Shown here: positions 47,560 to 63,957 of the stretch, piece by piece
Position numbering within the stretch: position 1 is the first letter of the stretch
Layout of the letters: each line of letters starts with the position of its first letter
Made by a program: the position numbers and the translations under genes
Source: a virus
Length of the DNA: 64,000 bases
Direction: 5' to 3' (one strand)
UHGV virus genome: UHGV-1356548
Notes under the pieces: model-generated
What the model was told of the DNA's origin: nothing
Databases searched by the model: none
Seen by the model: the letters and a program-made list of their open reading frames with translations, nothing else

Positions 47560-48563
47560 TGGCAGAGTACAGACGTAGAACATGGCGATTATTGTTTGGT
47601 CGTCCTGTAGAACATGGCGGCAAATCAAAAACCAATATCCCAAAATCTGTTGAAAAGAAAGGGGAGAGTGATTCCGGAGTTTATGAAGTTAGCTCGGACA
47701 CTGGTGCTGCCAATATAGAGTTTGACATACAAAAGGACAATACCAAAGAGCCAAACAAAGGTTATGTGACAGTTTACAACCTGTCTGACGATACAGTTAA
47801 CTACTTGGATATGCATCAGGCTGATGCCCTTGCAGTTATGTTTGAAGCTGGCTATGATAATGAGAACCAGTTGATATTCTCCGGAACTGTGGAGTTTGTT
47901 GAAGACAGATGGGAAGGCCCTACCAGAAAAACTAAGTTCATCTTTGGGGATGGCACTGAGAACATCATTAAGTGCCAAAGCACAAGATCTTATCAGAAAG
48001 GCACGCCTCTGAACTCTGTGCTTAATGACCTACTGAAGGATATGAACTTGCCAAAAGGTAGGGTTGTTGGTTTTGGAAACCAGACTTTACAATACTCTAT
48101 GGCTTTCTCTGGAAACACTGCAGAGAACCTCCGCAGGTTTGCAAGGCTGACCAACTCCACATTTAGCGTTCAGGATGGGGCTTTGTATTGGACCAAGGTT
48201 GGAAAAAGGTTCAAAGACTCTGTGTTTGAAATAAGTGCAGAGTCTGGGATGCACGGATCTCCTACCCCTAAAAATCCAGAACCTGCTAAAAAACGAAAAG
48301 CTAAAGCTGCTGCCAAAGGTGGTTCGACATCTAAAAAGAAAAAGAAAAACCCGAGAGAGGATGTTGGCCTTACTGTAACCACATGCCTTAACGGAGCTAT
48401 CCTCCCAGAGTCCACTATTTATCTTAAAAGCAAGCAATATACAGGCTTCTATAAGGTGATCACGGTGCATCATAAAGGAACCATAGAAGGAGGTGATTAC
48501 ATCACAGAGCTTGGCCTTGGGGAAACAGTCGGTGGGGTTGTTGACAAAACTGAGGAGGTATAA
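47559..48563 (+). CDS. hypothetical tail/baseplate protein
   Basis: 334-aa ORF with Lys-rich segment KKRKAKAAAKGGSTSKKKKKNP; function guessed from position only. Confidence 0.3.
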   Translation: MAEYRRRTWRLLFGRPVEHGGKSKTNIPKSVEKKGESDSGVYEVSSDTGAANIEFDIQKDNTKEPNKGYVTVYNLSDDTVNYLDMHQADALAVMFEAGYDNENQLIFSGTVEFVEDRWEGPTRKTKFIFGDGTENIIKCQSTRSYQKGTPLNSVLNDLLKDMNLPKGRVVGFGNQTLQYSMAFSGNTAENLRRFARLTNSTFSVQDGALYWTKVGKRFKDSVFEISAESGMHGSPTPKNPEPAKKRKAKAAAKGGSTSKKKKKNPREDVGLTVTTCLNGAILPESTIYLKSKQYTGFYKVITVHHKGTIEGGDYITELGLGETVGGVVDKTEEV

Positions 48564-49240
48564 TGGCAATAAATAGGAAAGATGCTGCTGTAAGATCCTT
48601 TATAGAAAAAATAATGAGGGACTACCACACCAGTATCAGGGCCAGAGTTGTCAGTGTAGACTACAGTATCCCTTCTGCAGCCGTGCAGCCAATAGCTGAA
48701 ACCACGTTTGATGATGGAGATGTGGAGAGATACCCTCTTATCTATGACGTTCCAATTCAAGTGATGTCTGCAAACAGTGGAAAGGCAAGGTTAACACTTC
48801 CTATTAAAGCTGGTGATGTTGTAGGATTGCAGTTTTCAGAGAGAAATGAAAACAATAACGACGATCAACAAACTCACGGCCTGTTTCCTGGGTGGGCAAT
48901 AACCTCTGTTCATTCAGACTCAAACGCTTTACAGATCGATCCTGATAACGTAGAGTTATGGAATGATAAGGTCTATTTTAAACTGACACCTTCTGGAGAT
49001 TTTGAGCTTCAAACACCGGGTGGGACATTACGGTGCGACAGCAGCGGGGAGTTTTCTTTCACTAACGGTGCTGCCAATTTGCGAGCTGCTGTGGATGGAA
49101 ATATCAGAATGAATGGTGCCACAATAGACCCATCTGGTAGAATTATAACTGCTGCTGGTGTGGATTTGGATTCATTCTATGCAGAATATAAAGGTCATAC
49201 CCACTCTTGCCCTGATGGCGAGACAAGTGGACCGCACTAA
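48563..49240 (+). CDS. hypothetical tail/baseplate protein (possible spike)
   Basis: 225-aa ORF, start overlaps previous stop. Confidence 0.3.
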   Translation: MAINRKDAAVRSFIEKIMRDYHTSIRARVVSVDYSIPSAAVQPIAETTFDDGDVERYPLIYDVPIQVMSANSGKARLTLPIKAGDVVGLQFSERNENNNDDQQTHGLFPGWAITSVHSDSNALQIDPDNVELWNDKVYFKLTPSGDFELQTPGGTLRCDSSGEFSFTNGAANLRAAVDGNIRMNGATIDPSGRIITAAGVDLDSFYAEYKGHTHSCPDGETSGPH

Positions 49241-49252
49241 TAGAGGGCTTTC

Positions 49253-49969
49253 ATGGCTACGCTTTATAGTGATATATTGATGGACCCACAGACAGGCGAT
49301 TTGGCGATAGACAAAGGTCTTGAGTTGATAGATTCAAACCAGGTAAGTCTGCGCCAGCGCTTGTGGATGAGGTTTAATACGTGGAAGGGGAGCTGGTACT
49401 TTGACGAGTTGTTTGGCTTCCCTTATATGGACTTTCTCAGTAAGAAGGTCATGAAGACTGTTCTTGATAACAAGATTATGGAAGTGGCAAGACAAGAGCC
49501 GGATGTGCTAAACATCGTAAACTTCCAGTCTACCATGGATCGAAGATCGAGAACATACCAAGCGTTCTTTGAGGTTGTTACCAAAGAGAACGAGATTGTA
49601 AGGCTGGCTTTCGTAGGTCTTGATCAGTTTACCTACCCACAGCCTGATTCTGGGACAACCTCTCTCTGTGATGATGAAGGTTGGATTAAGTGGGCCAATA
49701 AACTGTACTACCTGATCAACTTCAGATTGCCTAGAACCGGAGATGCCACATGGTGGAACCAGTATGCTGGTCCTGAGATGGAAAACCCTATCCCTGTAGG
49801 CTCTCTGTTGACTCAGGATAAAGATCTGCTGATGACCGAGGCAGAACAAACCATTAACCGCAATACCTGGACTCTTGCTCCAGATGAGCGCGAATACTCT
49901 GGTGTTATTGCTACCTCCAATGATGAGGCTATTGCCAACCAGTCTGGTCGTGCTATTGATGTTAACTAA
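49253..49969 (+). CDS. hypothetical tail/baseplate protein
   Basis: 238-aa ORF. Confidence 0.3.
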   Translation: MATLYSDILMDPQTGDLAIDKGLELIDSNQVSLRQRLWMRFNTWKGSWYFDELFGFPYMDFLSKKVMKTVLDNKIMEVARQEPDVLNIVNFQSTMDRRSRTYQAFFEVVTKENEIVRLAFVGLDQFTYPQPDSGTTSLCDDEGWIKWANKLYYLINFRLPRTGDATWWNQYAGPEMENPIPVGSLLTQDKDLLMTEAEQTINRNTWTLAPDEREYSGVIATSNDEAIANQSGRAIDVN

Positions 49970-49978
49970 GGAGAAATC

Positions 49979-50647
49979 ATGGCTGTAGCTTATCCTACAA
50001 TACCAATTCCAGATCTTGAAGATGCAGAAACAGTCCTGAGTGATGACTTCTTGGTTGTCAACCAGACTGATGGGACAAGAAAGGCTAAGATTGACGATGT
50101 TGTCAACGATCTTAGCATTACTAAGATAGTCTATTTCACAGAGGGTGGTTATCTTAAGAGCAAGAAGGACTTTGCTTATGATCCAGAAACTAAGCGCTAC
50201 TACACGTGGAACGGGGATTATCCTAAAATAATCCTCCCAGACTCCACTGTAGAGGGTGCTGGGGGTGTGTCTGCAAACGCCTGGTCTGTTTTTGGTGAGC
50301 TTGCTGCAACTTCTTCTGGCAGAATAGTTGATTACGGATCTATCGGTGGTCAGCTTGATATGGATCTTGAAGTTGCGGATACCTTTAAGGTTCGACTAAC
50401 TTCAAATACCACAATCTCTTTTGAAAATCAAACAGAAGGTCTTGAAGGGGTGGCGAGAACTATAACCGTATGCATTACTCAGACCTCTGGCGGCAACAAA
50501 GTCTATTGGCCTGGTAATGTTAAATGGTCCTACGGAAGAGATCCTATCCTAACATTTACAGCTGGTGCAACAGACATTTTCAAGTTGGAAACCTACGACA
50601 ACGGGTTAACTTGGTACGGGGCATTGATTATCGCAGGAGCTATCTAA
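49979..50647 (+). CDS. tail fiber-related protein sharing N-terminal anchor motif with the long tail fiber
   Basis: N-terminus (DDFLVVNQTDGTRKAKIDDVVNDL) parallels the N-terminus of the 53283 product (DDYLVVQQPDLTRRVKIGDVVHV). Confidence 0.4.
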   Translation: MAVAYPTIPIPDLEDAETVLSDDFLVVNQTDGTRKAKIDDVVNDLSITKIVYFTEGGYLKSKKDFAYDPETKRYYTWNGDYPKIILPDSTVEGAGGVSANAWSVFGELAATSSGRIVDYGSIGGQLDMDLEVADTFKVRLTSNTTISFENQTEGLEGVARTITVCITQTSGGNKVYWPGNVKWSYGRDPILTFTAGATDIFKLETYDNGLTWYGALIIAGAI

Positions 50648-50648
50648 G

Positions 50649-53246
50649 ATGCGTATTCAACACAACATTGATAACGTATTTCAGATGATTGAGGGGCACA
50701 GGAAGTGCCTCGATAACAACACAGGTATTACCAACACACCTACACAAAATAAGCTAGTAAACCCTGATGGTCTTATAGCTGCAGGGTGGGCAGGTAATAA
50801 GATAAATAACGATTGGGCAATGCATGAGTCCCAAGCTGTGTTGATTCTGGGATACATTGAAGCATACAGGGCATCGAAAAGCGATTTCTATCTGGATAGG
50901 GCAAAAGATGCTTGGGAAGCTTACAATAGTCATCTTCTGGGTGCATATGCCGTAGAAAGTAAAATGCAAAGATTGTCCCACTACCCTCTATCCACAGATG
51001 GGGTTCCATCACACGGTGGGTTTAAAGATGTGGTAGTGTCTTTTACCAACGGTAGAGGAAAAATCCCAGCTGGATCTCCGACATGGGGGGAATACCTGGA
51101 CAAGGCATTCCAAGCGTATAACGGTGTGTTAGGAAGAAACACTGTAGACTCTGATGTTTACGGTGGCACAGATGCTAACCCAGATTGGACAACATCAGGA
51201 TTAAGTTGGTGGGTTGAGTGGTACATAGCATGGGATGGTAACCGCTATTGGGCTAACGGGAGCATAGCCGACAGTGGGCATACGTCTATAGAGTTCGGCA
51301 CAATCCAATTACAAGATAAGGGTGTTACAGGAAGCCACAAGGTGACCTATTGTGTAAGATTACCTCAAGAGCAGGGTGGATCGGTGATACCTGCTGGATC
51401 CCCTGTAATTGTAAATCCTATAAACGTGGTTGCAGATAATCAGGCCCCAGAGTTGGACGGGGAAGAAATGTGGTGTGACGCTTGTTATCAACTCTACACC
51501 TTGACAGGTGAGGAAAAGTATTACACCGCGTTTAAACAGTCTTACAACAAGTTGCTTAATTTCAGTGATATAAACGCCTACGACAAGTTGTTTAGAAAGA
51601 CCACGTTGATTAAGGCACCGTTTACAGACGGTACTTGTCTTGTTGCAGGAACAGTTCCTGTCATGAGCAGAGACAGTGACGGGTATATCAATTTTAGAAT
51701 GAACGCACGCCAGCCTTGCGAAATAATTCAAAAAGGGACTACATACAAAATAGGCAGAGATGCTGAAATTGTTATGAATTTCGGAGGAGAAGGGGTTCTG
51801 TTCCAGCCACATTTCATCCTTAATGATGGCAACAATAACAAAAAACAGTACAGGATAGGGGTTCCTTTTGGAGGGGCAGAGGTAACAGAAATAGTTGCCA
51901 AGGTTACTGATTTCGTAGAGGTAGTTGGTAAAGACGGTAATCCGTACCTCTTACCTAAAGAGGAAAACATTGCCGTGAGCGGTGGTGCCAGTGTTAGTAT
52001 GCAGTACGATACTGACATTTACAACCACTCTGACAACTTCACCCGTTGTAATATAGCAAGAGGCAAAGTAACTTTCAACTTTGGAAGAGAGATTTCTTTA
52101 AACTCAGTAACTTATCGATCAGATGATGAGATGGTAAGGGTCAAATTTCTTGACAAAGACAGGTGGTTATGGTATGCTGATCTATATGCCACTAATGGAC
52201 AATGGATAACAGAAACTCTTACTCTAGGAGATTTCAAACTAGATCCGACACAACCTCATCACACTGAAGAAGAGATTAAACCTTTCTTTGCTAATCCTAA
52301 GGGACTCACCTCTGTAGATTTCAGCCTAAGCGACAGGCAGATAGGTAATGGCTTGTTTGATCTATATTGCGTCAACACACTGCCGCAATTCTATATTGCA
52401 GATAGGGATGCTTATCTAATCTGGTTTAGCGTATGGATGGCAAGCAAGACAGAATCAACCGCCAAGGTTGGTGATTGCTATGTCAGAAACTACAAGCAAG
52501 GTGCATACAGGCACACACCAGGTGTGTTCCCTGCCGGAAAGGTGATAGATAAGGAAAACTATCTCTTAGAGGAAAGGCCAAATTGGCCCTACCCTGGCAT
52601 GCAATACCCAGCAGTCTACTGCATGGGTGCAGAAAACATAGATCGCCATAGATTGTCAAATACAATAGGCTTTCTGTATGACGCTCAAGTCTGGTATAAT
52701 AATACATTTAAGACAGAGGGTCCAGTTGCCTCACGTTATGTATGGCAAAGAGGTAATGAAGGGTTGACTGGTTGGTGGGAGATGGTAGATAACTCTAAGC
52801 TCCAGTCAAGATCTTTTGTTGCTGCGTGCCGCACAATATATGAGCTCAAGAAACATAAAGAACCTGTTGATGAAAGACTATTCCTGTTCTGCCAGAAATG
52901 GGCATGGTTCCTCAACAGATTCCAGTCATCTCATTCAGGAAATCTGCCTACAGACTTTAACACCTCTGGGGGATATTCTTATCAGGACAGAGGAGACAGG
53001 ATGTGGGTGGTAGGTGAATGGCTTGCAGGTTGCTGCTGGCTAGGTCTGTGCGGGTATTCAGAGACAATACCTCAAATAGATATTGTTGTGGAAGCCTGTG
53101 TGAAGCTACTGCAAAAGCACCACTTCATTAATGGGGATAATATTTTAAACGGCTGCTGGGCAGTTTCTGATCCGGTTGGCTATCACTCTGGCGAAATCCT
53201 TCGCGGTCTGGGCCTTTATGCTCAATACCGTGGATTGTACCTTTAA
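50649..53246 (+). CDS. large tail-associated protein (possible tailspike/enzymatic fiber)
   Basis: 865-aa Trp/Tyr/Gly-rich ORF between the two anchor-motif proteins; no motif recognised by eye. Confidence 0.3.
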   Translation: MRIQHNIDNVFQMIEGHRKCLDNNTGITNTPTQNKLVNPDGLIAAGWAGNKINNDWAMHESQAVLILGYIEAYRASKSDFYLDRAKDAWEAYNSHLLGAYAVESKMQRLSHYPLSTDGVPSHGGFKDVVVSFTNGRGKIPAGSPTWGEYLDKAFQAYNGVLGRNTVDSDVYGGTDANPDWTTSGLSWWVEWYIAWDGNRYWANGSIADSGHTSIEFGTIQLQDKGVTGSHKVTYCVRLPQEQGGSVIPAGSPVIVNPINVVADNQAPELDGEEMWCDACYQLYTLTGEEKYYTAFKQSYNKLLNFSDINAYDKLFRKTTLIKAPFTDGTCLVAGTVPVMSRDSDGYINFRMNARQPCEIIQKGTTYKIGRDAEIVMNFGGEGVLFQPHFILNDGNNNKKQYRIGVPFGGAEVTEIVAKVTDFVEVVGKDGNPYLLPKEENIAVSGGASVSMQYDTDIYNHSDNFTRCNIARGKVTFNFGREISLNSVTYRSDDEMVRVKFLDKDRWLWYADLYATNGQWITETLTLGDFKLDPTQPHHTEEEIKPFFANPKGLTSVDFSLSDRQIGNGLFDLYCVNTLPQFYIADRDAYLIWFSVWMASKTESTAKVGDCYVRNYKQGAYRHTPGVFPAGKVIDKENYLLEERPNWPYPGMQYPAVYCMGAENIDRHRLSNTIGFLYDAQVWYNNTFKTEGPVASRYVWQRGNEGLTGWWEMVDNSKLQSRSFVAACRTIYELKKHKEPVDERLFLFCQKWAWFLNRFQSSHSGNLPTDFNTSGGYSYQDRGDRMWVVGEWLAGCCWLGLCGYSETIPQIDIVVEACVKLLQKHHFINGDNILNGCWAVSDPVGYHSGEILRGLGLYAQYRGLYL

Positions 53247-53250
53247 CATA

Positions 53251-53272
53251 GGGGGGCTGTTTGCCCCCTTTC
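53251..53272 (+). terminator. stem-loop / weak terminator
   Basis: GGGGGC-TGTT-TGCCCCC hairpin followed by TTTC, then RBS AGGAGA for the fiber gene. Confidence 0.4.
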
Positions 53273-53282
53273 AGGAGAAAGA

Positions 53283-56200
53283 ATGGCTGATATTAAAGTT
53301 GTCAGAATTGAATCTCTTCCTGCCACTACCGCAGTGACAGAGGATGATTACCTGGTTGTTCAACAACCAGACCTGACCCGTCGTGTAAAAATTGGCGATG
53401 TTGTCCATGTTGATGGGACTGTTTCTCATGTAATCTCCTTTAAGGAAGGTGGTAAGTTAAACGGCCCAATGGATTTTGCCTACTTCGAAGAGGAAGACCT
53501 CTACCTACGTTGGAAAGGCGAATTTCCGCACACTGTTCCTGCACTGTCTTCACCGTACTCCGATGGTGGGATCACTGATGCTGCATGGATGGTATATACT
53601 GACCCGTCCTTAAGGGAGGAGCTGGAATCTACCATTGGCGCATCTATGATCATGACAGCCGAAGGGCAGTCTGTCCAGGATGTAATGGATGTTACTGTTC
53701 AGACAGCTAACGATGCCAAAGCACTTGCACAGCGTGTAGATTTTGGTACAGTGCACACTGTAGGCGATGTTATTCACCTTGATAACTTTGTTGGCCCTGC
53801 AGTTATTGAAGAGGGAAGAACTACCAACTACCCTTCTGTAGCAGCTGGTGAAAAATTTCTGAACGGTGTGGTATCTCGTCGTGATACTACAACTGTTGAT
53901 GGTATTTTCCGTGGCGCTACCACCGGAGCCATGTACACCATTGCAGTAACCAACGGTGTAGCAACAACGAAAAGAATAGCACTTCGTGATGAATTTAAAC
54001 GCCTAGAGGCAAACAACCCAACAAGAACAGTTATCCGTGCTGGAGATGATTTAAATACGGCAGGGTACTTGCAGCTTGATGCAACAGGCCGTTGGGGTAT
54101 GTGGAACCAACAAACAGCTTCGTGGCAACCTCTTGCTATAGAGCAAGGCGGCACAGGGGCTAGAGATGCCGCTGGAGTCCGTATCAATATCGGTGCTTTC
54201 TATAAGCAACGTGCAGCCCTTGAGCCAAATTTCAATATCAATAACTTGACTGGTAATCAGGATGGTGTATACTACCAGCCGATGACTGCTTATGCAACTG
54301 AGGCAAATGGTTACCCTGCAGGTTCTGGTGCTGGTCACTTGATTGTCTGGCAGAACAATGCTAACGGCGGTACAGGTTGTCGTCAGGAATACTATCCATT
54401 CTCTAACGTAGATGTTTGGTATTTGAGAACCTATCAGGCCAACACAAATCAGTGGACTGCATGGCAGCCGATGGTCAGACCTCGTAACGATGATACCTTT
54501 AGATCGCACATCGGTCTCGGGTCTAGAAATACCCCTACCTTCGGGCACCTTTACCTATCTCAAAGCACTTCTGAGGTTAAGTCTCCATCAGGTATTCTCC
54601 ATGGGGATAAATACGGCGCTGACGGTGTCCTTGAGCATGGGTATAGGATCTACTCTGAGGTAAGAAACGACAATAAGGCTTGGTTGACAATCCACCTGCA
54701 CAAAGGCGCAAAAGGATCTGAAACTCATAGCTATTTAGGCTTCCGTGAGGATGGGGTCTTAGATTGTCCTAAATATATGCAGGTTGGTGATCTGAACGGT
54801 CAGCTGGCAAACTGGGGACTTGGAGAGTGGATCCGTAGTTCAGGGGCAGAAAGAGGCTTCTGGGGGTCCAAGAAAGCCGCCAAGATGGTTGTCTGGGATG
54901 GCGGTATGGACGAGCAAGGTGAAGGAACGCTTGAATGGGGTGTTTATAACAACCGGAAGGCCAAGTGGGAACCTCTACCTCAAGCCGCAGGTGGCACTGG
55001 GGCTACAACTTTAGCAGATGCTCAGAATCTGTTCAAAGTTCCTATAGCAGCAGGTGTAAAAGACTTCTTAACACTGCCAAGAACCGCAGGGATGGAAGAT
55101 GGGAAATACTACCCAATCATCGTTAGAACAGATCCGTATTACGCCCCTTCGACAGGTACAGATATTACTATAGTCACCAGGTCTTCATCTGGAAATGACC
55201 CTATGAACTGTGCGACCTTACAGTGTCACTATAGAACTGGTGGTTGGACAGACAGAGGAGACTCTTTCTACGGGGTAGTAAATTTCTACCAGAATGAAAA
55301 AGCACTTCTTGGGATGGTTGCTCCAACAAGGGGTAAACAAGAATATGTTGCTTTCTATGCAGAGGCGCGTGCTTTCCCTGTCAGCATATACGCAAGTAGA
55401 AATGTTGTCGAGGTGTTTACCAGGGAGCAAGATTACCAGGTTGGCTCTGTAACAGACAATCAGGACGGTGTTAAGTTCGTTGCACCTCTCCAGTCAGCAG
55501 ATTTGAATCTTGCTGTTCTTGGAGATAATAATACCAACACCAGACCTATTGTTGACTTCAAAGGGACTTCAGGGTTCTACACTGGTGGCGGCACACAGTG
55601 GCACTATATAGGCACTGCTGAACGCTATGCTGTGATGAGCAAAATGAATATGCCAAAAGTCGAGCTATGGGCAGACGGTCTTAACTATTTGTGCTACGGC
55701 AGTCCTAGAAAGGCGTTATTCTCTAATGCAGGCTTCCAGTGTGCATCAGATGGGACAGAGGATCTGACTAACGGTACGTTTACCTCTAAATGCGGTAATG
55801 GTGCTGGTCTCAAAGGACAGGCAGAGTTCAGATCTACTCCAGAGGCTGGTCAAGTTATTGTTCGTGATGTTGTAGGTTCTGCTCACAAATTCTACAACTT
55901 CAACAAAGATGGCACTTTCTCAGCTCCTGGTGGTTTTGTATGCCACACAGGTGCAGACTGGAACAACCAGTTCGGAAATAACAACCCTTCTAAAATAATG
56001 GCTGGTAACGTCAACGGACCTGAAGGTTCCATGGTTGTAGCAGGGTTGTCGGTTGGTTTTTCTGGAAACTACGCTTTCCAGATGGCAGGTCGTTTAGACC
56101 AGCTGTACACTCGTTCCATAGAGCAGGGAAACCACAGAGCGTGGAACAAAGTTATTCAGCACCGTGGTCAAGGGTTGGGAACTAATGACCTTAACGACTA

Positions 56201-57083
56201 CAAAGGGGATAGAGAGGGTTTTTATCACCAAGAGGCCAATGCTCAGGCCACTCCGGAGAGAAACTACCCTTGTGCTCAGGCAGGTACACTTATTGTGTAC
56301 AGGAATTACGCCAACGTGCCTGAGAGCTGTGTGCAGGAATATGTATCATATCTTGGGGAAAAATTCCTGCGTTATGGAACAACAATAGGTAGTGTTTTCA
56401 CATGGGGACCTTGGCAGCAGCTTGGTGGCAAAGGGATCACTTTGAAAACTCAAGGTTCGAATCTTGACCCAGAGTTTATAATCCACACTGGCGGCGGAGC
56501 TACTGTTGGCAACAGTTCCAACATACCTGCTAATACAGGTAGGTTATATTATTGGGGCAATGGTGCAGACCGGAAGAATGTGCTTGAGTTCCAGATAAGT
56601 GATAACTCAACACTCTCCAACTGGGTATTCCATTGCGGGGCCAAGACAGATGAGGCCAAATCAAGATATTTTGCTGTCAATGGTGCAGTAGAATGCACCA
56701 CTGTTAGTCAAAGTTCTGACCGTGACCTGAAGGATAATATCGAGGTCATACCTAACGCTGTAGAAGCTATCCGGAAGATGAAAGGCTATACCTATACTTT
56801 AAAAGAGAATGGTATGCCTTACGCAGGGGTAATTGCTCAAGAAGTTATGGAAGCATTACCAGAAGCGGTTGGGTCTTTCGTGCAAAGGAAAGAGGTTCCA
56901 GGGCCTACTCAAGACGGCACCCCTCTGATGACTGAGGAAAGATTCTATAACGTTGACTATGCAGCTGTAACAGGCTTGCTTGTCCAGGTTTGCAGGGAAC
57001 AGGACGATAAAATAACCGCCCTTGAGGAGCAGGTTAAAAAATTGACAGAGGTTGTTACTGGGTTGCAAGAGAAACTGAAGTAA
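53283..57083 (+). CDS. long tail fiber with C-terminal S74-type intramolecular chaperone (autoproteolytic) domain
   Basis: 1266 aa; C-terminal SDRDLKDNIEV...GVIAQEV...coiled-coil signature of endosialidase/L-shaped-fiber chaperone domains; internal duplicated module (GHLIVWQNNANGGTGCRQEYYPF / GTLIVYRNYANVPESCVQEYVSY). Confidence 0.75.
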   Translation: MADIKVVRIESLPATTAVTEDDYLVVQQPDLTRRVKIGDVVHVDGTVSHVISFKEGGKLNGPMDFAYFEEEDLYLRWKGEFPHTVPALSSPYSDGGITDAAWMVYTDPSLREELESTIGASMIMTAEGQSVQDVMDVTVQTANDAKALAQRVDFGTVHTVGDVIHLDNFVGPAVIEEGRTTNYPSVAAGEKFLNGVVSRRDTTTVDGIFRGATTGAMYTIAVTNGVATTKRIALRDEFKRLEANNPTRTVIRAGDDLNTAGYLQLDATGRWGMWNQQTASWQPLAIEQGGTGARDAAGVRINIGAFYKQRAALEPNFNINNLTGNQDGVYYQPMTAYATEANGYPAGSGAGHLIVWQNNANGGTGCRQEYYPFSNVDVWYLRTYQANTNQWTAWQPMVRPRNDDTFRSHIGLGSRNTPTFGHLYLSQSTSEVKSPSGILHGDKYGADGVLEHGYRIYSEVRNDNKAWLTIHLHKGAKGSETHSYLGFREDGVLDCPKYMQVGDLNGQLANWGLGEWIRSSGAERGFWGSKKAAKMVVWDGGMDEQGEGTLEWGVYNNRKAKWEPLPQAAGGTGATTLADAQNLFKVPIAAGVKDFLTLPRTAGMEDGKYYPIIVRTDPYYAPSTGTDITIVTRSSSGNDPMNCATLQCHYRTGGWTDRGDSFYGVVNFYQNEKALLGMVAPTRGKQEYVAFYAEARAFPVSIYASRNVVEVFTREQDYQVGSVTDNQDGVKFVAPLQSADLNLAVLGDNNTNTRPIVDFKGTSGFYTGGGTQWHYIGTAERYAVMSKMNMPKVELWADGLNYLCYGSPRKALFSNAGFQCASDGTEDLTNGTFTSKCGNGAGLKGQAEFRSTPEAGQVIVRDVVGSAHKFYNFNKDGTFSAPGGFVCHTGADWNNQFGNNNPSKIMAGNVNGPEGSMVVAGLSVGFSGNYAFQMAGRLDQLYTRSIEQGNHRAWNKVIQHRGQGLGTNDLNDYKGDREGFYHQEANAQATPERNYPCAQAGTLIVYRNYANVPESCVQEYVSYLGEKFLRYGTTIGSVFTWGPWQQLGGKGITLKTQGSNLDPEFIIHTGGGATVGNSSNIPANTGRLYYWGNGADRKNVLEFQISDNSTLSNWVFHCGAKTDEAKSRYFAVNGAVECTTVSQSSDRDLKDNIEVIPNAVEAIRKMKGYTYTLKENGMPYAGVIAQEVMEALPEAVGSFVQRKEVPGPTQDGTPLMTEERFYNVDYAAVTGLLVQVCREQDDKITALEEQVKKLTEVVTGLQEKLK

Positions 57084-57090
57084 CTGTTTT

Positions 57091-57118
57091 GCCCTCGCTT
57101 CGGCGGGGGCTTTTTGTT
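57091..57118 (+). terminator. rho-independent terminator
   Basis: GCCCTCGC-TTCG-GCGGGGGC hairpin followed by TTTTT. Confidence 0.65.
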
Positions 57119-57122
57119 TGTA

Positions 57123-57151
57123 TTGCGTATTAACTCAAAATCTGGTAAAAT
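57123..57151 (+). promoter_or_regulatory. sigma70-like promoter with extended -10 (TGgTAAAAT)
   Basis: TTGCGT, 17-bp spacer ending TGG, TAAAAT. Confidence 0.5.
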
Positions 57152-57182
57152 AACTATCATGATTGTTTAACCTGGAGGCACA

Positions 57183-57773
57183 ATGTTTTTATGGGAAAGG
57201 CCTAGATACCTTCCAGATATTAGATTGGAGCTGCTGGCAGATATTGTTACGTTTAAAAGTCCGTTTACAGGTAAAACGCAAAAAGTAACCTATGCCACAC
57301 CTAACTGGAAAGGCACTTTGACGGTCTCCAATATCAGCGAGTCACAGTTGCTAGAGCTTAAGAGCTTTGTTGATCAGGTGTATAAAGATGGGAACATCTT
57401 TCTTATTAAAACTTACGGTCACTCTGTAACAGCTAACGAGCCAATCGCCCTTGGGCCTACTGGTAACGACGATTTTTTGAAGACGGTCGGGTGGGAGCCA
57501 AACAGAGACATAGCCAGAGCTGGTGATAAAATATCTGTGAACGATGAGTTGAAAGTGGTAACAGCTCCAGTGCGTAGTGATGGTGTTGGGTCTGCTGTTA
57601 TAGGCATATCTCCAAGACTTAGAAAACCTATTGCCGCAGGGGACACCATGAAGATAATAACTCAATCTCCGAAGGGTAGGTTTCATATCAGAGATATTTA
57701 TAAAATTAAGCAAAAAGTCGATGCTATGCAAAAAGGTGATAATATAGTTATCAACTTCTTTGAGGATTTTTAA
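57183..57773 (+). CDS. minor tail protein (candidate)
   Basis: 196-aa ORF opening the operon that ends with the J-like gene. Confidence 0.35.
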   Translation: MFLWERPRYLPDIRLELLADIVTFKSPFTGKTQKVTYATPNWKGTLTVSNISESQLLELKSFVDQVYKDGNIFLIKTYGHSVTANEPIALGPTGNDDFLKTVGWEPNRDIARAGDKISVNDELKVVTAPVRSDGVGSAVIGISPRLRKPIAAGDTMKIITQSPKGRFHIRDIYKIKQKVDAMQKGDNIVINFFEDF

Positions 57774-57774
57774 G

Positions 57775-58326
57775 ATGATCAGAGCGCCATTAGATAATTT
57801 ATTTCTTGAAAAGCTGGAGCTTGATGGTGTTGAGATCTTAATTGCTGCAAAGCTGGAGCTACCGACAGGAACTGTCAGAGTGTGCTCAGGCACTGGTGTT
57901 GTAGTAATTGAGGGGCAACATTTTATAGGGATAGGTGGATCAGCAACATTAACTGCTGTGTCTGAGAAAGATGCCACCAACTTCGGATCTGTGGTAGCAA
58001 CATTAAACGGGTTTGATCCCAAGTATGTGGGTGATCTGCTGAAGACGGAGTATTCTGGTTGTCGTGCCACGTTGTACATTACCGCTATGGAGAATGGTCT
58101 ACCTGTTACAACTAATGGCTTGTTTGACGGACTTATAACAGATATGGCTATTCAGACAGGTGAGAATAGTGCTTTGTCCATATCCATCTCTTCCATCTTC
58201 AACAGCTGGTTAAGAGGTTTTCCTTATCGGTACACGGAGGAAAGCCACAGCTCAAGAAACGATAATGACAGATTTTTTAAATATGTGGATCAGGTGGCGA
58301 GCCGCCCGATCATTTGGGAGGTTTAA
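57775..58326 (+). CDS. minor tail protein (candidate)
   Basis: Start at ATG 57775 right after the previous stop; 183 aa. Confidence 0.35.
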   Translation: MIRAPLDNLFLEKLELDGVEILIAAKLELPTGTVRVCSGTGVVVIEGQHFIGIGGSATLTAVSEKDATNFGSVVATLNGFDPKYVGDLLKTEYSGCRATLYITAMENGLPVTTNGLFDGLITDMAIQTGENSALSISISSIFNSWLRGFPYRYTEESHSSRNDNDRFFKYVDQVASRPIIWEV

Positions 58327-58751
58327 TGAGCACACACCCTCGTTTAGTGGATTGGCAAGAAAGATTGTGGAGAGTGTTTGACGAAGAGGCCACCATACCT
58401 TTTGAATGGGGATTCCACGATTGCTGCACCTTTGCAGCTAAGTGTGTTGATGCCCAATACGGAACAGATTTTCTTTCTAACTTCGAAGGAACGTATAAAA
58501 CAGAGTTGGAAAGCAAAAGATGGTGCATGCTCCGTTTCAAAACCACACACCTGCCTACTATTTTTGATCTCTTTATGACTCGACTAGATACTCCTAAACA
58601 GGTTCAGCGTGGCGATATTGTTATCTTCGAAGGTCTGAACGGGCTCACCGCTGGTGTGTTCTGGAACAACCAGATTTGGGCGAAAGGTGATAAAGGGGTC
58701 TTTATGTTCGACATGAAAGATTCTATCGTTGTTGATGTCTGGAGGTATTAA
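58326..58751 (+). CDS. minor tail protein (candidate, Cys/His-containing)
   Basis: Start ATG overlapping previous stop (TAATG); WGFHDCCTF segment; 141 aa. Confidence 0.35.
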   Translation: MSTHPRLVDWQERLWRVFDEEATIPFEWGFHDCCTFAAKCVDAQYGTDFLSNFEGTYKTELESKRWCMLRFKTTHLPTIFDLFMTRLDTPKQVQRGDIVIFEGLNGLTAGVFWNNQIWAKGDKGVFMFDMKDSIVVDVWRY

Positions 58752-61700
58752 TGCCAATTGCAATGATTGATAACATCGTTGCTTCTGCAAGATCTTCAAG
58801 TTATGACTGGAACGCATCCAAGGCAGCTCTGGCTGACAGCCTGAACACTGTTACCACCAGAACTCTGGATAAGATTTTTGAGGGCAACAAATCTTACAGA
58901 AGTCAGCAAGATAGACAAAAGCTTCTCAGATCTTCTGCTGCACCCTGCTCTGTAGTGTATGGGAAGACACGCACGTCTGGACTGCTTGCGTTTTTGGAGC
59001 AGGACAGAGACAGAACCCTCCATTGTGCCATTGTTCTTGCTAATCATCCTCTGGAAGGTATAGAGGACATACTCATCGACGGTAATCCTATTTCCTCGTA
59101 TGGAGATCTGGTATCGTGGGAGCTACATAACGACAGAAAAACATCTGATCCTTTCATGGGTACACACTGCCCATCATGGTCACCTGACATGATAGGTAGA
59201 GGGATCAGTTGGCTACGTGCCAGCTTCAGGTTTGACCCTAACAAGTTTCCTTTTGGGTTGCCAAACGTTACACTCGTTAAGGTTGGTAAAAAATGCTATG
59301 ATCCTCGCATCAGTAAAGAGGTGTATACCAATAACGCGGCCTTGGTGATTCTAGACTATTTAAGAACGTACCTTAAATGTCCTGACGAAACCATCAACTG
59401 GGAGTCCTTCAAGGAGGCTGCTAACATATGCGACGAGGCGGTAAAAAACGCAGACGGAACCAGTGAGCGCCGATACACCATTAATGGCGAGTTTGACATG
59501 GACGAGGCTCCGGCAAGCATTATGGCAGAGATGCTGAAAGCTTGTGGCGCAGATCTCAGCTATGTAGCTGGTAAGTATGGTTTGCTGGTTGGTGCATACT
59601 ATGGCCCGGCAACAATGACGCTGAGTGAGGATTGTGTCTGTGGTGAGGTCAAGATCTATCCGGAAGCCTCATTTGACAAAAGATCCAACACAATAACTGG
59701 CAGATTCACTAGTCCGACCAAAGGGTATTCTGAAACAGATTTTCCATCAGTGTTTGTCCCAGAGTGGATAGGGAAGGATGGAGAAAGAAAGATAATCGAT
59801 ATAGACTATCGCTTTGTTACCAGTCCTTATCAAGCTCAACGTGTTTCTGCAATCTTCCTAAGACGTGCCAGAGCTGGCAGGATTATTGAAGTCACCTGCA
59901 ATATGCGAGGTTTCAAATTTAAACCTGGTCGTTACGTTACAATGGACCTCCCAAGTATTGGTATAGTAGGCCAAGAAATGAGAGTTCTTGAATGGGAGTT
60001 TACCAAAAAGGGTGGTGTCAAGGTAAAACTTCGTCAAGATGCTAAAGAGTGGAATGATGCCACAGGGCAACTTCCGGATTCTGGCGATGTAGATATTCCG
60101 ATATCTCCATCTGGTGTAGCTCAACCGCAAAACTTCAGATATTCCGTTCTCCAAGCTGGAGAAGTAACTCACGGTGTTTTGGCTTGGGACAACGTTGGGA
60201 CTTATGCTCAAAACATTGTGCAGGTCAGGAAAAACGGAGAGATTGTCTGGACAGCGCAGACAGTTGAGCAGTTTGTCCGTGTTGAAGGTCTGACTAAAGG
60301 TTCCTACACAGCCACTGTTGTTGCAACATCTTATAAAGGTGGTGTATCTCCAGAAGCATACTGTGAGTTTAACATTCAGGCACCTGAGGCTCCGGTTTCT
60401 GTAGAAGTTAAACAGGGATACTTTGCTATTACCCTGATCCCGCATAGCAGAGCCTTGGCCAGTGTAAGCACCCAATATGACTTTTGGACATCTGGGATGA
60501 CAAGATTGCCAGATACCAGTGATGCAACCGTTACTTCAAAAGCCACTCGTATGGGTGTTGGTTCAACTTGGACATCTGAAGGTCTGCAGAACGATAAGAT
60601 TTATTATTGGTATATCAGGACAACAAATGCTTTTGGTTCATCTGCTTTTGTGGAGTGTGCAGCCCACTGTTACACATCCATAGAAGATCTTATGCCGCAG
60701 ATTGATGCTGAGTTCAAAAAGACAGAGACTTATAAAGAGCTTACCGCCAATCTCGATAATGCAGTCAAGGAAATGGATAAAAATGTTGGTGCAGTCAATG
60801 ACCGTGTTACTAGCATTTTTGAAGAGCTTGGAGATACAATAGAGGGTGTTGTCAGAGAGACGACAGAAAAATTTACAGGGGTTAATGGAGAAATTTCTGC
60901 CCTTAACAGTAAGCTGGTAGCAGCTCAGCAATCCTTTGACGATAAACTTGCAGCAGAGTCTGGTAGGCTTGGGTCACTAATCGAGACAACAAATAGATCA
61001 ACCGTTGATCTTGTTAATCGTAAAACTCAAGCATTGAGTGAGCAAATAACTGCAACTCAAGGTACTCTGCGGGAAGAGTTGAAGAACACTGAGAGCAAAC
61101 TTAACTCCTCTATTCAAGAAACCAACAAGGCAACAACCGACCTGCTAAATAAGACAACGGAAGCTATTAAGCAGGATCTGGTGGCAGCTACAGGGAAGAT
61201 CACCAAGCTGGAAGATGATGTGCAGAAAGAGGTTGCCAATCTGCAAGCATCTATTCAAGAAACTAATAGTACAACAGTTGATCTTGTTAATAATACAGCC
61301 ACAGCGATCCGTCAAGAACTTACCTCTGCAAAACAAGAAATTGTTGACGAAATGGGTAATATTGATGAGCTTAGGGCTACAGTATCTAATACCTCTAAAG
61401 CTGTAACAACACTTGAGGGTAAAATAGATGCTCAGTGGGGGGCTAAGATTCAGGTTGACAGCCATGGTAATAAATATGTGGCAGGTATCCAGCTGGGCAT
61501 GGAGGGGTCTGGAGGACAAGTTCAATCATACTTTATGGTTAGTGCAAACAACTTTGCGGTGTACAACCCTGGTAACGGCACAGCAACCCTTGCTTTCGCA
61601 ATCAAGAATAACCAAGCGTTCTTGAAAGACGCTTTTATAGAGAATGGCACGATCTCCTCTGCCAAGATCGCACAAGAAATTTCGTCAAACAACTACGATA

Positions 61701-62350
61701 GCAACGGGTACCATAACTACGGTTGGTATATTAACAAGAACGGGCACGCCCAATTTATGGATGTGTGGGTGAAAGGTAACATCAACGCCAGTTCTGGTAA
61801 CTTCACAGGGGCAGTTAACGCCACCAGTGGTACCTTCCGTGGTGATGTTTATGCCAATAATGGTAGCTTTAGAGGCACCATAGATGCAACCGGAGGTACC
61901 TTCCGTGGTCGTGTAGAAGCTTCTGTTATCCGTGCTAACCAGTTCGAAGGTGCGATTGTTGCACACAGGACTTACGGAGATTGTGCTCCAGTATATAACT
62001 CCCGGCAAAGGGTTTGCCGTTGGAGGTGGAGATACGTAGATAACGTTTCAGGTCAGGGTAAGAACGTAACATTCTTCTTTAAACTGAACGGTACTCTTGC
62101 CAGCTCCCAACTGAATGCATGGATAGCTGGTCATCAGATCCTTGCTGGCAAGAAGTATTTTAACGACAACAACGGCATGTGTGCGGTAGGGATAACAGGT
62201 CTGGGTGAACAAACTATAGACATTGTTATCGAGATTTACACACCGTGGTCAACGTCGAGCGTGACAGGTGTCACAATCTCCTGTCCCACTGTGATCGTTA
62301 GTCGTTCTAACTCAAGCTTCCAGGGACCTTGGAACGAGTCTCACGACTAA
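58751..62350 (+). CDS. host-specificity / central tail fiber protein, lambda J-like
   Basis: 1199 aa; several blocks align by eye to lambda gpJ (GYFAITLIPH vs GYFQITATPH; IRTTNAFGSSAFVE vs IRSVNTVGKSAFVE; KYVAGIQLGMEG vs HYVAGIGLSMED; YFMVSANNFAVYNPGNG vs QFLVAANRIAFIDPANG); C-terminal about 150 aa diverge. Confidence 0.7.
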   Translation: MPIAMIDNIVASARSSSYDWNASKAALADSLNTVTTRTLDKIFEGNKSYRSQQDRQKLLRSSAAPCSVVYGKTRTSGLLAFLEQDRDRTLHCAIVLANHPLEGIEDILIDGNPISSYGDLVSWELHNDRKTSDPFMGTHCPSWSPDMIGRGISWLRASFRFDPNKFPFGLPNVTLVKVGKKCYDPRISKEVYTNNAALVILDYLRTYLKCPDETINWESFKEAANICDEAVKNADGTSERRYTINGEFDMDEAPASIMAEMLKACGADLSYVAGKYGLLVGAYYGPATMTLSEDCVCGEVKIYPEASFDKRSNTITGRFTSPTKGYSETDFPSVFVPEWIGKDGERKIIDIDYRFVTSPYQAQRVSAIFLRRARAGRIIEVTCNMRGFKFKPGRYVTMDLPSIGIVGQEMRVLEWEFTKKGGVKVKLRQDAKEWNDATGQLPDSGDVDIPISPSGVAQPQNFRYSVLQAGEVTHGVLAWDNVGTYAQNIVQVRKNGEIVWTAQTVEQFVRVEGLTKGSYTATVVATSYKGGVSPEAYCEFNIQAPEAPVSVEVKQGYFAITLIPHSRALASVSTQYDFWTSGMTRLPDTSDATVTSKATRMGVGSTWTSEGLQNDKIYYWYIRTTNAFGSSAFVECAAHCYTSIEDLMPQIDAEFKKTETYKELTANLDNAVKEMDKNVGAVNDRVTSIFEELGDTIEGVVRETTEKFTGVNGEISALNSKLVAAQQSFDDKLAAESGRLGSLIETTNRSTVDLVNRKTQALSEQITATQGTLREELKNTESKLNSSIQETNKATTDLLNKTTEAIKQDLVAATGKITKLEDDVQKEVANLQASIQETNSTTVDLVNNTATAIRQELTSAKQEIVDEMGNIDELRATVSNTSKAVTTLEGKIDAQWGAKIQVDSHGNKYVAGIQLGMEGSGGQVQSYFMVSANNFAVYNPGNGTATLAFAIKNNQAFLKDAFIENGTISSAKIAQEISSNNYDSNGYHNYGWYINKNGHAQFMDVWVKGNINASSGNFTGAVNATSGTFRGDVYANNGSFRGTIDATGGTFRGRVEASVIRANQFEGAIVAHRTYGDCAPVYNSRQRVCRWRWRYVDNVSGQGKNVTFFFKLNGTLASSQLNAWIAGHQILAGKKYFNDNNGMCAVGITGLGEQTIDIVIEIYTPWSTSSVTGVTISCPTVIVSRSNSSFQGPWNESHD

Positions 62351-62359
62351 CCTTTAAAG

Positions 62360-62386
62360 CCCCGCTTCGGCGGGGTTTATTTTTAT
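62360..62386 (+). terminator. rho-independent terminator
   Basis: CCCCGC-TTCG-GCGGGG hairpin followed by TTTATTTTTAT. Confidence 0.7.
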
Positions 62387-62393
62387 GCTCAGA

Positions 62394-62422
62394 TTGACTA
62401 TTGTTACAAAATTTGGTAAAAT
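62394..62422 (+). promoter_or_regulatory. sigma70-like promoter with extended -10 (TGgTAAAAT)
   Basis: TTGACT, 17-bp spacer ending TGG, TAAAAT; followed by GGAGGA RBS and a GTG start at 62456. Confidence 0.5.
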
Positions 62423-62455
62423 ACCTTGTAGAGATTTTCATACCGGAGGAGTGAC

Positions 62456-63946
62456 GTGGCTAAGTATGGATTGACAGAGGCTGGTTTCGTTATACCAACC
62501 CTAAATGACCTAATCGTTGAAACTAAGCAAAGCCTGATCCGTGCTTTTGGCGAAAACTTCAACGTACAGAGTAACTCCGTTGCAGATAAGCTGACCACTA
62601 TCTTCAACGAGCGAGAGTATCAACTTATTCTTATGGCAGCATCTGTATACGCATCACAGACGCTGTATGGGGCAGAAGGTATTTACCTAGATGAGCTTCT
62701 TGGAAGACAGGGTATTTACCGAAGAGGCCGTTCTAAATCATCAGGTACCTGCCAGTTGACAATCAACACAACTGTGCCGTACAATATGATTTATGATTCC
62801 AAAACTTATACGCTGGACAGTGGCAACTTTGTTCTTAGCAACGATGTGCAAGTAGCAGGGAATCTTATTGCTCACAGAATAAATGCTCCAGACCTAAGGA
62901 TTGGGAAATACAACTTCCAAATTACCAACCAGACAGATGGAAGTATCAAAACAAAAAGCCTGGTTTTAACAGATAAGTCTCTGGACTCTTCTGATTTGCC
63001 AAGCTTTTACGGAGAGATTAAGCAATTCATTGTCGATAATACAACCCTGTTGAACGACGATTTGATTCAGATCGATATGTTGACAGGAACGTTGTGGATA
63101 GGGTACAATTCGAATCTTGATCAAGTTGGGCTTAACAGCAGGGTAGATTTCAGAGTATCCCCGATTGTAGGGGAAAGAACTATCACACTGGATGTTATCG
63201 CTAACGAGGCTGGTGAGCTGTCAAGAGAAGCAGAAACCGTGACAACAATGTCACCTACTCCTAGTGGATTTATCAAGCTTACCAACCGAGAAAGATTCAA
63301 TGAGGGCAGGGATGTTGAGAAAGACTCAGAGTATCGCTTAAGAGCTTCCAGCACAAAACAGTTAACATCTAAGGCTACCCGTCCTGCAATCCTTAGCGCT
63401 GTAAGCGAGGTGAAAGGTGTTGAGAAAGTGAGAGTGTTCTCCAACAACACCGATAAAACTGATGCTAAAGGTATACCTCCTTACAAGTTCCAAGTGGTTG
63501 TGTTTGGTGGTGCAACGGAAGACATTTGCCAAGCACTTTACCAAACTATAGCCTGTACGAACAGGACTTATGGTAATATTTTCTACGATGTCACTACATC
63601 TGACGGTCAAACTGAAAGAATTTATTACTCCAAGGCAAACACCTACCGCCTGGATATGAGAATTACCTACTCCGGTGCTGCGCTTTCTACAACCGAAAAA
63701 GATGCCATTATAGAGGCTCTTTTGCAGGTTGTTAACGGACTGGATGTTGCAGATACGTTGTATAATATCCAATTGGTAGGTGCTGCATCTGCTGCTGTGT
63801 CAATAGGCAGATTTAATAGACTGGTAATTCAAGTTAAATCCGTAGGAGCTTCTGATGAAGCTTACACTACAAACGATATTGTTGCGAACATGACCGAGGT
63901 GTTTGACCTCGACGAAAGTAATATAACTTTCCAACAAACTATTTAA
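62456..63946 (+). CDS. hypothetical tail protein
   Basis: 496-aa ORF after the J-like gene. Confidence 0.35.
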   Translation: MAKYGLTEAGFVIPTLNDLIVETKQSLIRAFGENFNVQSNSVADKLTTIFNEREYQLILMAASVYASQTLYGAEGIYLDELLGRQGIYRRGRSKSSGTCQLTINTTVPYNMIYDSKTYTLDSGNFVLSNDVQVAGNLIAHRINAPDLRIGKYNFQITNQTDGSIKTKSLVLTDKSLDSSDLPSFYGEIKQFIVDNTTLLNDDLIQIDMLTGTLWIGYNSNLDQVGLNSRVDFRVSPIVGERTITLDVIANEAGELSREAETVTTMSPTPSGFIKLTNRERFNEGRDVEKDSEYRLRASSTKQLTSKATRPAILSAVSEVKGVEKVRVFSNNTDKTDAKGIPPYKFQVVVFGGATEDICQALYQTIACTNRTYGNIFYDVTTSDGQTERIYYSKANTYRLDMRITYSGAALSTTEKDAIIEALLQVVNGLDVADTLYNIQLVGAASAAVSIGRFNRLVIQVKSVGASDEAYTTNDIVANMTEVFDLDESNITFQQTI

Positions 63947-63957
63947 GGCGGCGAGAT

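Follow-up and report, generated by a model that had tools for sequence, protein, structure and literature searches.

Modular N-terminal mounts, branched or multivalent sets of receptor-binding proteins and pairs of a tail-attached anchor with a separate enzyme are already established in phages, and databases already contain the Pfam domain and 'tail fiber' annotations that recur in this study. SP6 and the KP34-type 'anchor' fibers are further anchor-plus-enzyme systems besides those of K1E and K1-5. The Pfam domain concerned, PF18668 (Tail_spike_N), is a family defined on CBA120 TSP1 and Gp66, and in CBA120 the heads of TSP1 and TSP3 mediate the binding of these spikes (PMC8825819). Here, we analyzed a 64,000-nucleotide (nt) stretch of the virus genome UHGV-1356548 (the window), in which genes for a 222-amino-acid (aa) protein, an 865-aa protein and a 1266-aa long fiber follow one another at positions 49979-57083. 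These 7.1 kilobases (kb) are 100% identical to Escherichia phage I29 (ON286975.1), a Vequintavirus and rV5-like myophage. The Vequintavirus records listed next show 92-97% identity, and 121 of 124 matching records show at least 90%. We found that the 222-aa protein and the long fiber begin with the same type of attachment unit, and that the 222-aa protein is probably an adaptor by which the 865-aa protein is tethered to the particle. The elements on which this account relies are as follows.

49979..50647, plus strand: gene for the 222-aa protein (I29_42; ortholog of rV5 gp43), the proposed adaptor; open reading frame (ORF) with ribosome-binding site (RBS) GGAGA-N5-ATG

50306..50644, plus strand: C-terminal domain of ~110 aa in the 222-aa protein (aa 110-222; the C-domain), the interface proposed for the 865-aa protein from gene-pair linkage

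50649..53246, plus strand: gene for the 865-aa protein (I29_41; rV5 gp42; homolog of phi92 gp141), modeled with an (α/α)6 glycosidase-like fold and β-rich insertions

53283..57083, plus strand: gene for the 1266-aa long fiber (I29_40; rV5 gp41); ORF with RBS AGGAGA-N4-ATG; phrog_6578 tail fiber

An initial annotation of the window had proposed that the 222-aa protein and the long fiber start with related segments of ~40 aa. The relationship is real and the segment is longer than first thought: BLASTP pairs residues 8-105 of the 222-aa protein with residues 7-105 of the long fiber (38% identity, 55% positives, one gap, E=3e-18), so that the shared part spans about 100 aa. When Smith-Waterman local scores were compared with those of 2000 composition-preserving shuffles, z was 31 over residues 1-110, 10.9 over residues 1-45 (the motif quoted in the annotation) and 18.5 over residues 46-110, and in each of the three ranges 0 of 2000 shuffles matched or beat the observed score. 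Because no shuffle equaled it, the similarity stands well above composition-matched shuffles, the check that the annotation had put forward, and a chance resemblance of the two N-termini was ruled out (z=31). A hidden Markov model (HMM) of the shared unit found two copies only in the window together with I29 positions 1-27200, which hold the rest of the I29 tail region, and tblastn located the unit at exactly 2 places per genome in the listed Vequintavirus and Seunavirus records.

The shared unit consists of two parts, an anchor peptide of ~45 aa and a PF18668 domain that follows it, and both were mapped in each protein.

49979..50113, plus strand: anchor peptide of the 222-aa protein, aa 1-45 (…IPDLEDAETVLSDDFLVVNQTDGTRKAKIDDVVNDL); z=10.9 versus shuffles against the fiber N-terminus

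50129..50293, plus strand: PF18668 Tail_spike_N in the 222-aa protein, aa 51-105 (Pfam E=2.1e-10, 41.0 bits, cut-off 25)

53283..53417, plus strand: anchor peptide of the fiber, aa 1-45 (…IESLPATTAVTEDDYLVVQQPDLTRRVKIGDVVHVD), from alignment and shuffle test versus the 222-aa protein

53418..53591, plus strand: PF18668 Tail_spike_N in the fiber, aa 46-103 (Pfam E=2.2e-10, 40.9 bits, cut-off 25)

PF18668 begins ~45 residues from the N-terminus in both proteins, ahead of the body, and the first ~45 residues that form the anchor peptide lie on its 5' side, outside Pfam coverage, with the consensus …h-x-h-x-[DES]-L-P-x-[AT]-x5-6-D-[YFL]-h-h-h-x-Q-x-[DG]-x-T-[KR]-[KR]. A profile search with the shared unit returned 611 matches among 1.8 billion representative proteins. 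In these matches, proteins of 214-1599 aa begin with the complete unit, and their bodies include pectate-lyase-like spikes, HxH-tipped fibers and others; PF18668 without the anchor is far commoner and usually internal, and in some proteins an insertion separates the two parts. The anchor motif also occurs without PF18668, at the N-termini of phi92 gp140 and gp143. PDB sequence matches of the PF18668 regions were Sf11 gp13, CBA120 TSP1, TSP3 and TSP4, and chain 4qnl_A, which we take to be G7C gp63.1; Sf11 gp13 was the best match for both the 222-aa protein (E=2.8e-5) and the fiber (E=1.1e-10). In the cryo-electron microscopy (cryo-EM) structure of Sf11 (PDB 9OCC), the docking element comprises residues 4-59, located just ahead of the residues that match PF18668 (68-124). 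Because Sf11 gp13 docks via the segment preceding its PF18668 region, we read the anchor peptide as the docking element; by this analogy, the peptide would be the dock that bears specificity and PF18668 a generic head or spacer.

Comparison of related loci indicated that the unit moves between bodies. The triad of 222, 865 and 1266 aa in I29 measures 224, 929 and 712 aa in Seunavirus 4MG, in which the body behind the full anchor unit of the 712-aa protein is homologous to phi92 gp150, a colanidase, over gp150 residues 208-798; phi92 itself mounts this colanidase body on a different N-terminus. In phi92, the anchor peptide is found at the start of gp140 (157 aa) and of gp143, an endosialidase, and gp142 lies between gp141 and gp143, with gp141 35% identical to the 865-aa protein and the gp140 C-domain 42% identical to that of the 222-aa protein. 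Because the same slot carries a colanidase in 4MG and an endosialidase in phi92, the anchor is considered an exchangeable mounting module. The suggestion in the initial annotation that the N-terminus is a shared docking adaptor was thereby upheld, as the unit behaves like an exchangeable virion-attachment module, with PF18668 in both proteins, unrelated bodies behind it and the swaps seen in 4MG and phi92. The Erwinia phage phiEt88, a small temperate myophage, appears to display a minimal layout of two anchored proteins: its adjacent gp27 (214 aa) and gp28 (658 aa), at 8258-10878, have anchor-like starts as judged by eye, and contain a T4 Gp10_C domain with HxH repeats and PF18668 with a pectate-lyase body, respectively. 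The anchor HMM matched gp28 over its PF18668 part only and left gp27 unmatched. No homolog of the 865-aa protein was found in phiEt88, and since anchor-like N-termini are present there without one, the anchor would not need the 865-aa protein.

The second line of evidence concerns the C-domain, which is the most widely matched part of the 222-aa protein and, across many phage families, forms the very end of short proteins of 157-269 aa (tblastn, PHROGs). A homolog of the 865-aa protein is encoded directly downstream of the C-domain gene in 9 of the 12 loci scanned, which represent Vequintavirus, Justusliebigvirus and Phapecoctavirus, Rosemountvirus, Crifsvirus, Aghbyvirus (T7-like) and Kolesnikvirus; 4MG adds Seunavirus. 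The short protein was matched by tblastn in 536 records and the large protein in 525, the two sets being distributed over genera in almost the same way, and the coordinates of the two adjoin wherever one record is in both lists, including phages of ~240 kb and ~370 kb and Vibrio phages of 157 kb. Single-protein searches for related loci returned near-identical loci only, and a word-indexed homolog search gave 4-6 relatives per query, to which a profile added none. All well-matching loci that were opened hold a protein of 157-269 aa followed by a full-length homolog of the 865-aa protein (27-45% identity).

ISAO8 (T7-like Aghbyvirus): short protein 269 aa, large protein 930 aa

ECO319P1 (Crifsvirus): short protein 259 aa, large protein 972 aa

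SPLA2 (Rosemountvirus): short protein 207 aa, large protein 985 aa

SeKF_13 (Kolesnikvirus): short protein 244 aa, large protein 1157 aa

phAPEC8: short protein 157 aa, large protein 958 aa

phi92: short protein 157 aa, large protein 958 aa

4MG: short protein 224 aa, large protein 929 aa

I29: short protein 222 aa, large protein 865 aa

In 8 of 8 lineages, the stop codon of the short gene overlaps or directly adjoins the start codon of the large one (TAATG in 5, an 8-nt overlap in 2 and a 1-nt gap in I29). The pair is conserved in at least nine unrelated phage lineages, and both subunits in S144, gp16 and gp17, are virion proteins. The N-termini of the short proteins, on the other side of the C-domain, are mutually unrelated across lineages: those of I29 and 4MG consist of anchor plus PF18668, that of phi92 of the anchor alone, and that of ISAO8 of PF03906 (Phage_T7_tail, the T7 tail-fiber N-terminal domain). 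The SPLA2 N-terminus had no Pfam match and that of ECO319P1 only a sub-threshold one to LYTB (16.9 bits, cut-off 24.5), both being coiled-coil-like by inspection, and an anchor-like motif was read by eye in SeKF_13, where the anchor HMM finds none. PF03906 is a tail-binding domain, and its presence at the N-terminus of the ISAO8 short protein therefore places this protein proximally and the enzyme distally.

Because the C-domain is inherited with the 865-aa gene across unrelated families while the N-terminus changes, the 222-aa protein is best understood as an adaptor, and we regard this assignment as probable. The conserved end of the short protein would then face the enzyme and the variable end the particle, which is the opposite of a receptor-binding tip. 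The initial annotation had treated the 222-aa protein as a fiber in its own right, and this it probably is not, given the pairing of its C-domain with the 865-aa gene and its changing N-terminus. The same annotation had considered the two proteins as possible 'alternative' or branched fibers. Total-virion proteomics of rV5 detected gp41 (the fiber), gp42 (the 865-aa homolog) and gp43 (the 222-aa homolog) together (PMC3606486), and both anchor-bearing genes are present in every relative looked at; since all three rV5 proteins were found in virions, we conclude that they co-exist on particles, and find no support for fibers used either one or the other. An HHpred similarity of the rV5 gp43 N-terminus to that of the P22 tailspike had already been noted (PMC3606486), and the 222-aa protein as a whole gave a full-length match to phrog_7760, 'tail fiber protein'. 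The initial annotation had suggested that the 865-aa protein may be a further tailspike. Its model is a six-hairpin α/α toroid, i.e., the (α/α)6 barrel of the glycoside hydrolase/epimerase superfold, and not a right-handed parallel β-helix, suggesting that the protein is a glycosidase-like enzyme with a putative activity of that kind. A helix region near the N-terminus of this protein is conserved (…GH..F[LMV][DE]RNTG…). Pfam, NCBIfam and the anchor HMM recognized no virion-attachment domain in the 865-aa protein, and an NCBIfam scan of the 222-, 865- and 1266-aa proteins gave no match.

Several observations weigh against an adaptor role. The single-sequence AlphaFold2 model of the 222-aa protein had a predicted local distance difference test score (pLDDT) of 35, unusable for the fold of the C-domain, and a PDB profile search with the C-domain found no homolog; the model of the 865-aa protein is of medium confidence (pLDDT 70, predicted template modeling score 0.54, 7-sequence alignment). 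A mirror-tree comparison of C-domain and enzyme identities over 21 lineage pairs carries no weight in either direction, with a Pearson coefficient of 0.70 that was driven by one close pair and a Spearman coefficient of -0.16. Two genes may likewise stay together because one product is a chaperone of the other or because both are regulated jointly. A sequence-profile search of 18 I29 tail-region proteins with Pfam, the library that did detect Gp10_C in phiEt88 gp27, gave no T4 gp10-like domain at E<=0.01, and no docking partner was recognized. Microcystis phage Mel-JY34 and Pseudomonas phage pPa_SNUABM_DT01 have a divergent C-domain with no recognizable 865-aa homolog downstream; in DT01, the neighbors of the C-domain gene encode concanavalin-like lectin proteins, and the C-domain may pair with other partners in these two phages. 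Finally, a 2026 cryo-EM study of phi92 likened gp140 to the capsid spike of Pa223. The end of that spike is a knob with a tumor necrosis factor (TNF) fold, and the TNF fold is common at receptor-binding fiber tips. The C-domains without a large partner and the likeness of gp140 to a knobbed spike would suit a 222-aa protein that is a self-sufficient short fiber, with anchor, head and receptor-binding knob in its own socket, to which the 865-aa protein is joined otherwise or serves as assembly factor or cap. PHROG families likewise put the C-domain at the C-terminal tip of 'tail fiber protein' entries, and a downstream protein has been reported to cap the fiber tip in Alteromonas phages (PMC10579305). 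Nevertheless, a self-sufficient short fiber seems unlikely to us. Within a fiber, it is normally the receptor-binding tip that varies most, whereas here the C-domain is conserved and the N-terminus varies, from Escherichia to Vibrio hosts, and strict adjacency with stop/start overlap of the gene pair holds in all eight lineages. The 269-aa protein of ISAO8 is the sole annotated tail-fiber gene product in the stretch examined, and 269 aa is too short for a whole T7-like fiber. In rV5 and S144, moreover, the large protein is part of the virion and not a transient chaperone.

It could also be argued that the 865-aa protein is itself attached to the baseplate, as a scaffold that forms the arm of an L-shaped fiber, like the adaptor protein (gp37) of K1E and K1-5; two sockets on it would take the anchor peptides of the 222-aa protein and of the long fiber, which would yield a true branched fiber. 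In Vequintavirus and Seunavirus, the three genes directly follow one another, and in phi92 they nearly do so, with gp142 intervening. The phi92 cryo-EM study left two of three fibers unassigned: the L-shaped fiber I was proposed to have the endosialidase at the tip, fiber II joins fiber I at the base, no component was assigned to the arm of fiber I or to fiber II, and gp141 was neither considered nor mentioned in the paper. These features agree with a branched arm, but its probability is low in view of the short proteins of ISAO8, ECO319P1, SPLA2 and SeKF_13, which keep the C-domain and in which the anchor HMM finds no anchor (that of SeKF_13 is anchor-like by eye). Because four lineages retain the C-domain without an HMM-detected anchor, the conserved contact with the large protein must be the C-domain and not the anchor. 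The two anchor-like N-termini of phiEt88, without any 865-aa homolog, and the T7 tail-fiber N-terminal domain on the ISAO8 short protein also speak against two anchor sockets on the 865-aa protein. By far the least credible proposal is that a duplicated fiber gene is decaying and has left the 222-aa gene, the product of which would do no more than fill a socket or would have ceased to fill one, as might be imagined from the shortness of its product and the paralogy of its first 105 residues to the fiber; a comparable short ORF adjoins the endosialidase gene in K1E. A pseudogene was rejected on the basis of sequence conservation across Vequintavirus and of synonymous-only differences versus phage HeinrichReichert. 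The 222-aa protein is 98-100% identical in most Vequintavirus records (at least 95% in 119 of 536 records matched by tblastn) and 44% identical to its 4MG ortholog over the full length, its C-domain is conserved in distant families, and all 4 nucleotide differences from HeinrichReichert are synonymous, too few for a meaningful ratio of non-synonymous to synonymous substitution rates. The protein was also detected in rV5 virions (PMC3606486).

If the 222-aa protein is indeed an adaptor, the following arrangement can be envisaged. The first ~105 residues of both proteins would form one virion-attachment module, in which the anchor peptide would confer docking specificity and PF18668 would act as a generic, presumably trimeric, spacer. 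An rV5-like particle would bear two kinds of appendage at once, both mounted by this module. One would be the long fiber, with ~340 constant residues and a distal part swapped by recombination, and with an S74 chaperone that is presumably cleaved off after folding. The other would comprise the 222-aa protein as proximal adaptor (anchor, PF18668 and C-domain), the C-domain of which would hold the 865-aa protein through a putative binding interaction. The C-domain and the enzyme would behave as a translationally coupled, horizontally mobile cassette to which each lineage fits its own N-terminal attachment piece. Docking may take place at the periphery of the baseplate wedge, where a 496-aa protein and a 228-aa protein (I29_33) could be involved, and the 496-aa wedge protein is our candidate for the docking platform. 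One might speculate that two anchor-bearing assemblies side by side on the wedge would fit the fiber picture of phi92. A broader proposal, which we put forward only tentatively, is that the C-domain and the (α/α)6 enzyme make up an undescribed, horizontally mobile two-subunit host-recognition appendage, of which podoviruses, myoviruses and jumbo phages change only the adaptor N-terminus. Were this so, rV5- and phi92-like phages would use the anchor of their main receptor-binding protein for it, the wedge would offer two equivalent sockets, and gp140-gp141 would correspond to fiber II or to the arm of fiber I in phi92.

The long fiber shows the modularity expected of the first appendage within a single gene. 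Compared with phage HeinrichReichert, 1 of 1020 nucleotides differs in the first 340 codons versus 233 of 2781 in the remainder, and fiber alleles of 617, 827, 988 and 1481 aa have the first ~300-340 residues in common (to the QPLAIEQGGTGA motif) and diverge beyond, as judged by inspection. An HHpred match of rV5 gp41 to the C-terminus of the K1F endosialidase has been reported (PMC3606486). Hairpins flank the fiber gene on both sides; the upstream one was missed by the terminator scan because its T-run is short, and the two may adjust how much adaptor, enzyme and fiber are made relative to one another.

53251..53271, plus strand: GC-rich hairpin GGGGGGC-TGTTT-GCCCCC followed by TTT, read from the sequence, in the 36-nt gap between the 865-aa and fiber genes

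53283..54302, plus strand: constant proximal part of the fiber, aa 1-340, near-invariant versus HeinrichReichert

56715..56870, plus strand: Peptidase_S74 intramolecular chaperone domain of the fiber, aa 1145-1196 (Pfam E=6.6e-14, 52.4 bits, cut-off 22)

57091..57120, plus strand: intrinsic-terminator-like hairpin GCCCTCGC-TTCG-GCGGGGGC with a T-run at the end of the 222/865/1266 block, from the terminator scan

62456..63946, plus strand: baseplate wedge protein of 496 aa; Pfam PF04865 (Baseplate_J), 31% identity to phi92 gp145

The trio lies in a contractile-tail module that runs, in this order, from tape measure, tube initiator, hub and central spike to a 238-aa sheath-initiator-like protein; on the 3' side of the latter come the 222/865/1266-aa trio, a lambda-like tip cluster and the Baseplate_J wedge gene. 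ORFs on the minus strand across the trio are all of 150 aa or less, and an Rfam scan of 48000-58500 matched no family. The lambda-like tail-tip cluster (57183-62350) is situated inside this myovirus baseplate module, between the fiber and wedge genes, and encodes a 196-aa distal-tail-protein-like product, a 188-aa protein, a 145-aa DUF6950 protein and a 1199-aa protein with Ig_J, Ig_J_second and Phage_Tail_Tip domains (lambda J). Because no such cluster occupies that position in 4MG or phi92, it looks like a Vequintavirus-specific insertion. In the I29 record, the wedge gene is annotated in two pieces (I29_35 and I29_34) and its reading frame is disrupted, whereas the window has an intact ORF; the window and I29 are identical over 37979-62003 and differ at 264 positions in the last 2 kb (62004-64000), so that the deposited I29 sequence is not the exact source of the window. 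Just outside the window, I29_32 (I29 stretch 24410-26479) encodes a 690-aa tail protein with Calx-beta, NCTSP_N and TIM-barrel_NCTSP domains, the latter two being domains of the phage N4 non-contractile sheath protein. This protein is homologous to phi92 gp142, which was named in recent work as the receptor-binding protein for NGR polysaccharide. Far upstream of the trio, a 4661-bp segment of the window is repeated in tandem without a mismatch (16582-21242 = 21243-25903, 100% identity; region 16582-25912). Each copy holds, among others, a 261-aa minus-strand ORF (19074-19856 and 23735-24517) that was judged Sir2-like by eye alone. The duplication junction is not in any deposited phage record and I29 has a single copy; the duplication could be a very recent event, an assembly artifact or an edited sequence.

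In the literature covered, which was incomplete and offers no proof of novelty, we found no description of the anchor paralogy between gp41 and gp43 of rV5-like phages, of a rule by which genomes of three genera each encode two proteins with the anchor, or of a mobile cassette of adaptor C-domain and (α/α)6 enzyme. These phages are of practical interest, being among the most often isolated E. coli phages and candidates for therapy and biocontrol. The proposed architecture is testable and engineerable, as the ~45-aa anchor marks exactly two proteins per genome. The slot on the 3' side of the enzyme gene takes fibers, colanidases or endosialidases that bear the anchor, and new receptor-binding bodies could be grafted onto residues 1-105 (or 1-340). 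Likewise, the spread of the cassette over at least nine lineages flags a widespread, uncharacterized and predicted virion enzyme, a conserved glycosidase-like subunit for which the short protein is probably the tether.

How this system relates to those already described may be judged by comparison. As in Kuttervirus CBA120 (TSP1-4) and G7C (gp63.1 and gp66), several receptor-binding proteins occur together, each with a conserved N-terminal head and an exchangeable body, and the heads belong to the same domain family, PF18668. The secondary spikes of such complexes attach to a scaffold by D1-D2 heads, and in I29 a head-type domain is present. Unlike in those phages, the anchor peptide of ~45 aa, and not a D1 domain, precedes PF18668 in the I29 proteins, one of the two anchored proteins is a proposed adaptor for a non-β-helix enzyme, and the T4 gp10-like XD2/XD3 scaffold domains carried by TSP2, TSP4 and gp66 were not found in the I29 tail proteins; because this hallmark docking domain was not found, we do not file the I29 system with the CBA120 and G7C branched complexes. 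At the level of sequence and layout, there is also a likeness to the siphophage tailspike Sf11 gp13, with its succession of docking segment, PF18668-matching region and body. The docking segment of Sf11 is, however, a bundle of helices that grips one helix of the distal tail protein, whereas the I29 anchor differs in sequence and is found in a phage with a myovirus baseplate. The podovirus anchor-plus-enzyme systems of K1E and K1-5 provide a further parallel, in that a short tail-attached protein carries a separately encoded enzyme, as is proposed here; the ISAO8 version of the cassette even has PF03906, the T7 tail-fiber N-terminal domain, on its short subunit, and fiber I of phi92 was described as resembling the L-shaped fibers of K1E and K1-5. 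The differences are that no sequence relationship to the K1E and K1-5 adaptors exists, that the partner is modeled as an (α/α)6 barrel and not as a β-helix or β-propeller, and that the putative interface is a C-domain without a solved homolog. Like endosialidase-type fibers with an intramolecular chaperone, which is released by autoproteolysis at a conserved serine, the 1266-aa fiber has a C-terminal Peptidase_S74 domain. The closest relatives are gp140, gp141 and gp143 of the 'Swiss army knife' adsorption apparatus of phi92, since gp140 and gp141 are direct homologs of the I29 pair and the anchor peptide is common to gp140 and gp143. Unlike in I29, phi92 gp140 lacks PF18668, with the anchor fused straight to the C-domain, and the anchored receptor-binding protein of phi92 is an endosialidase and not a long fiber.

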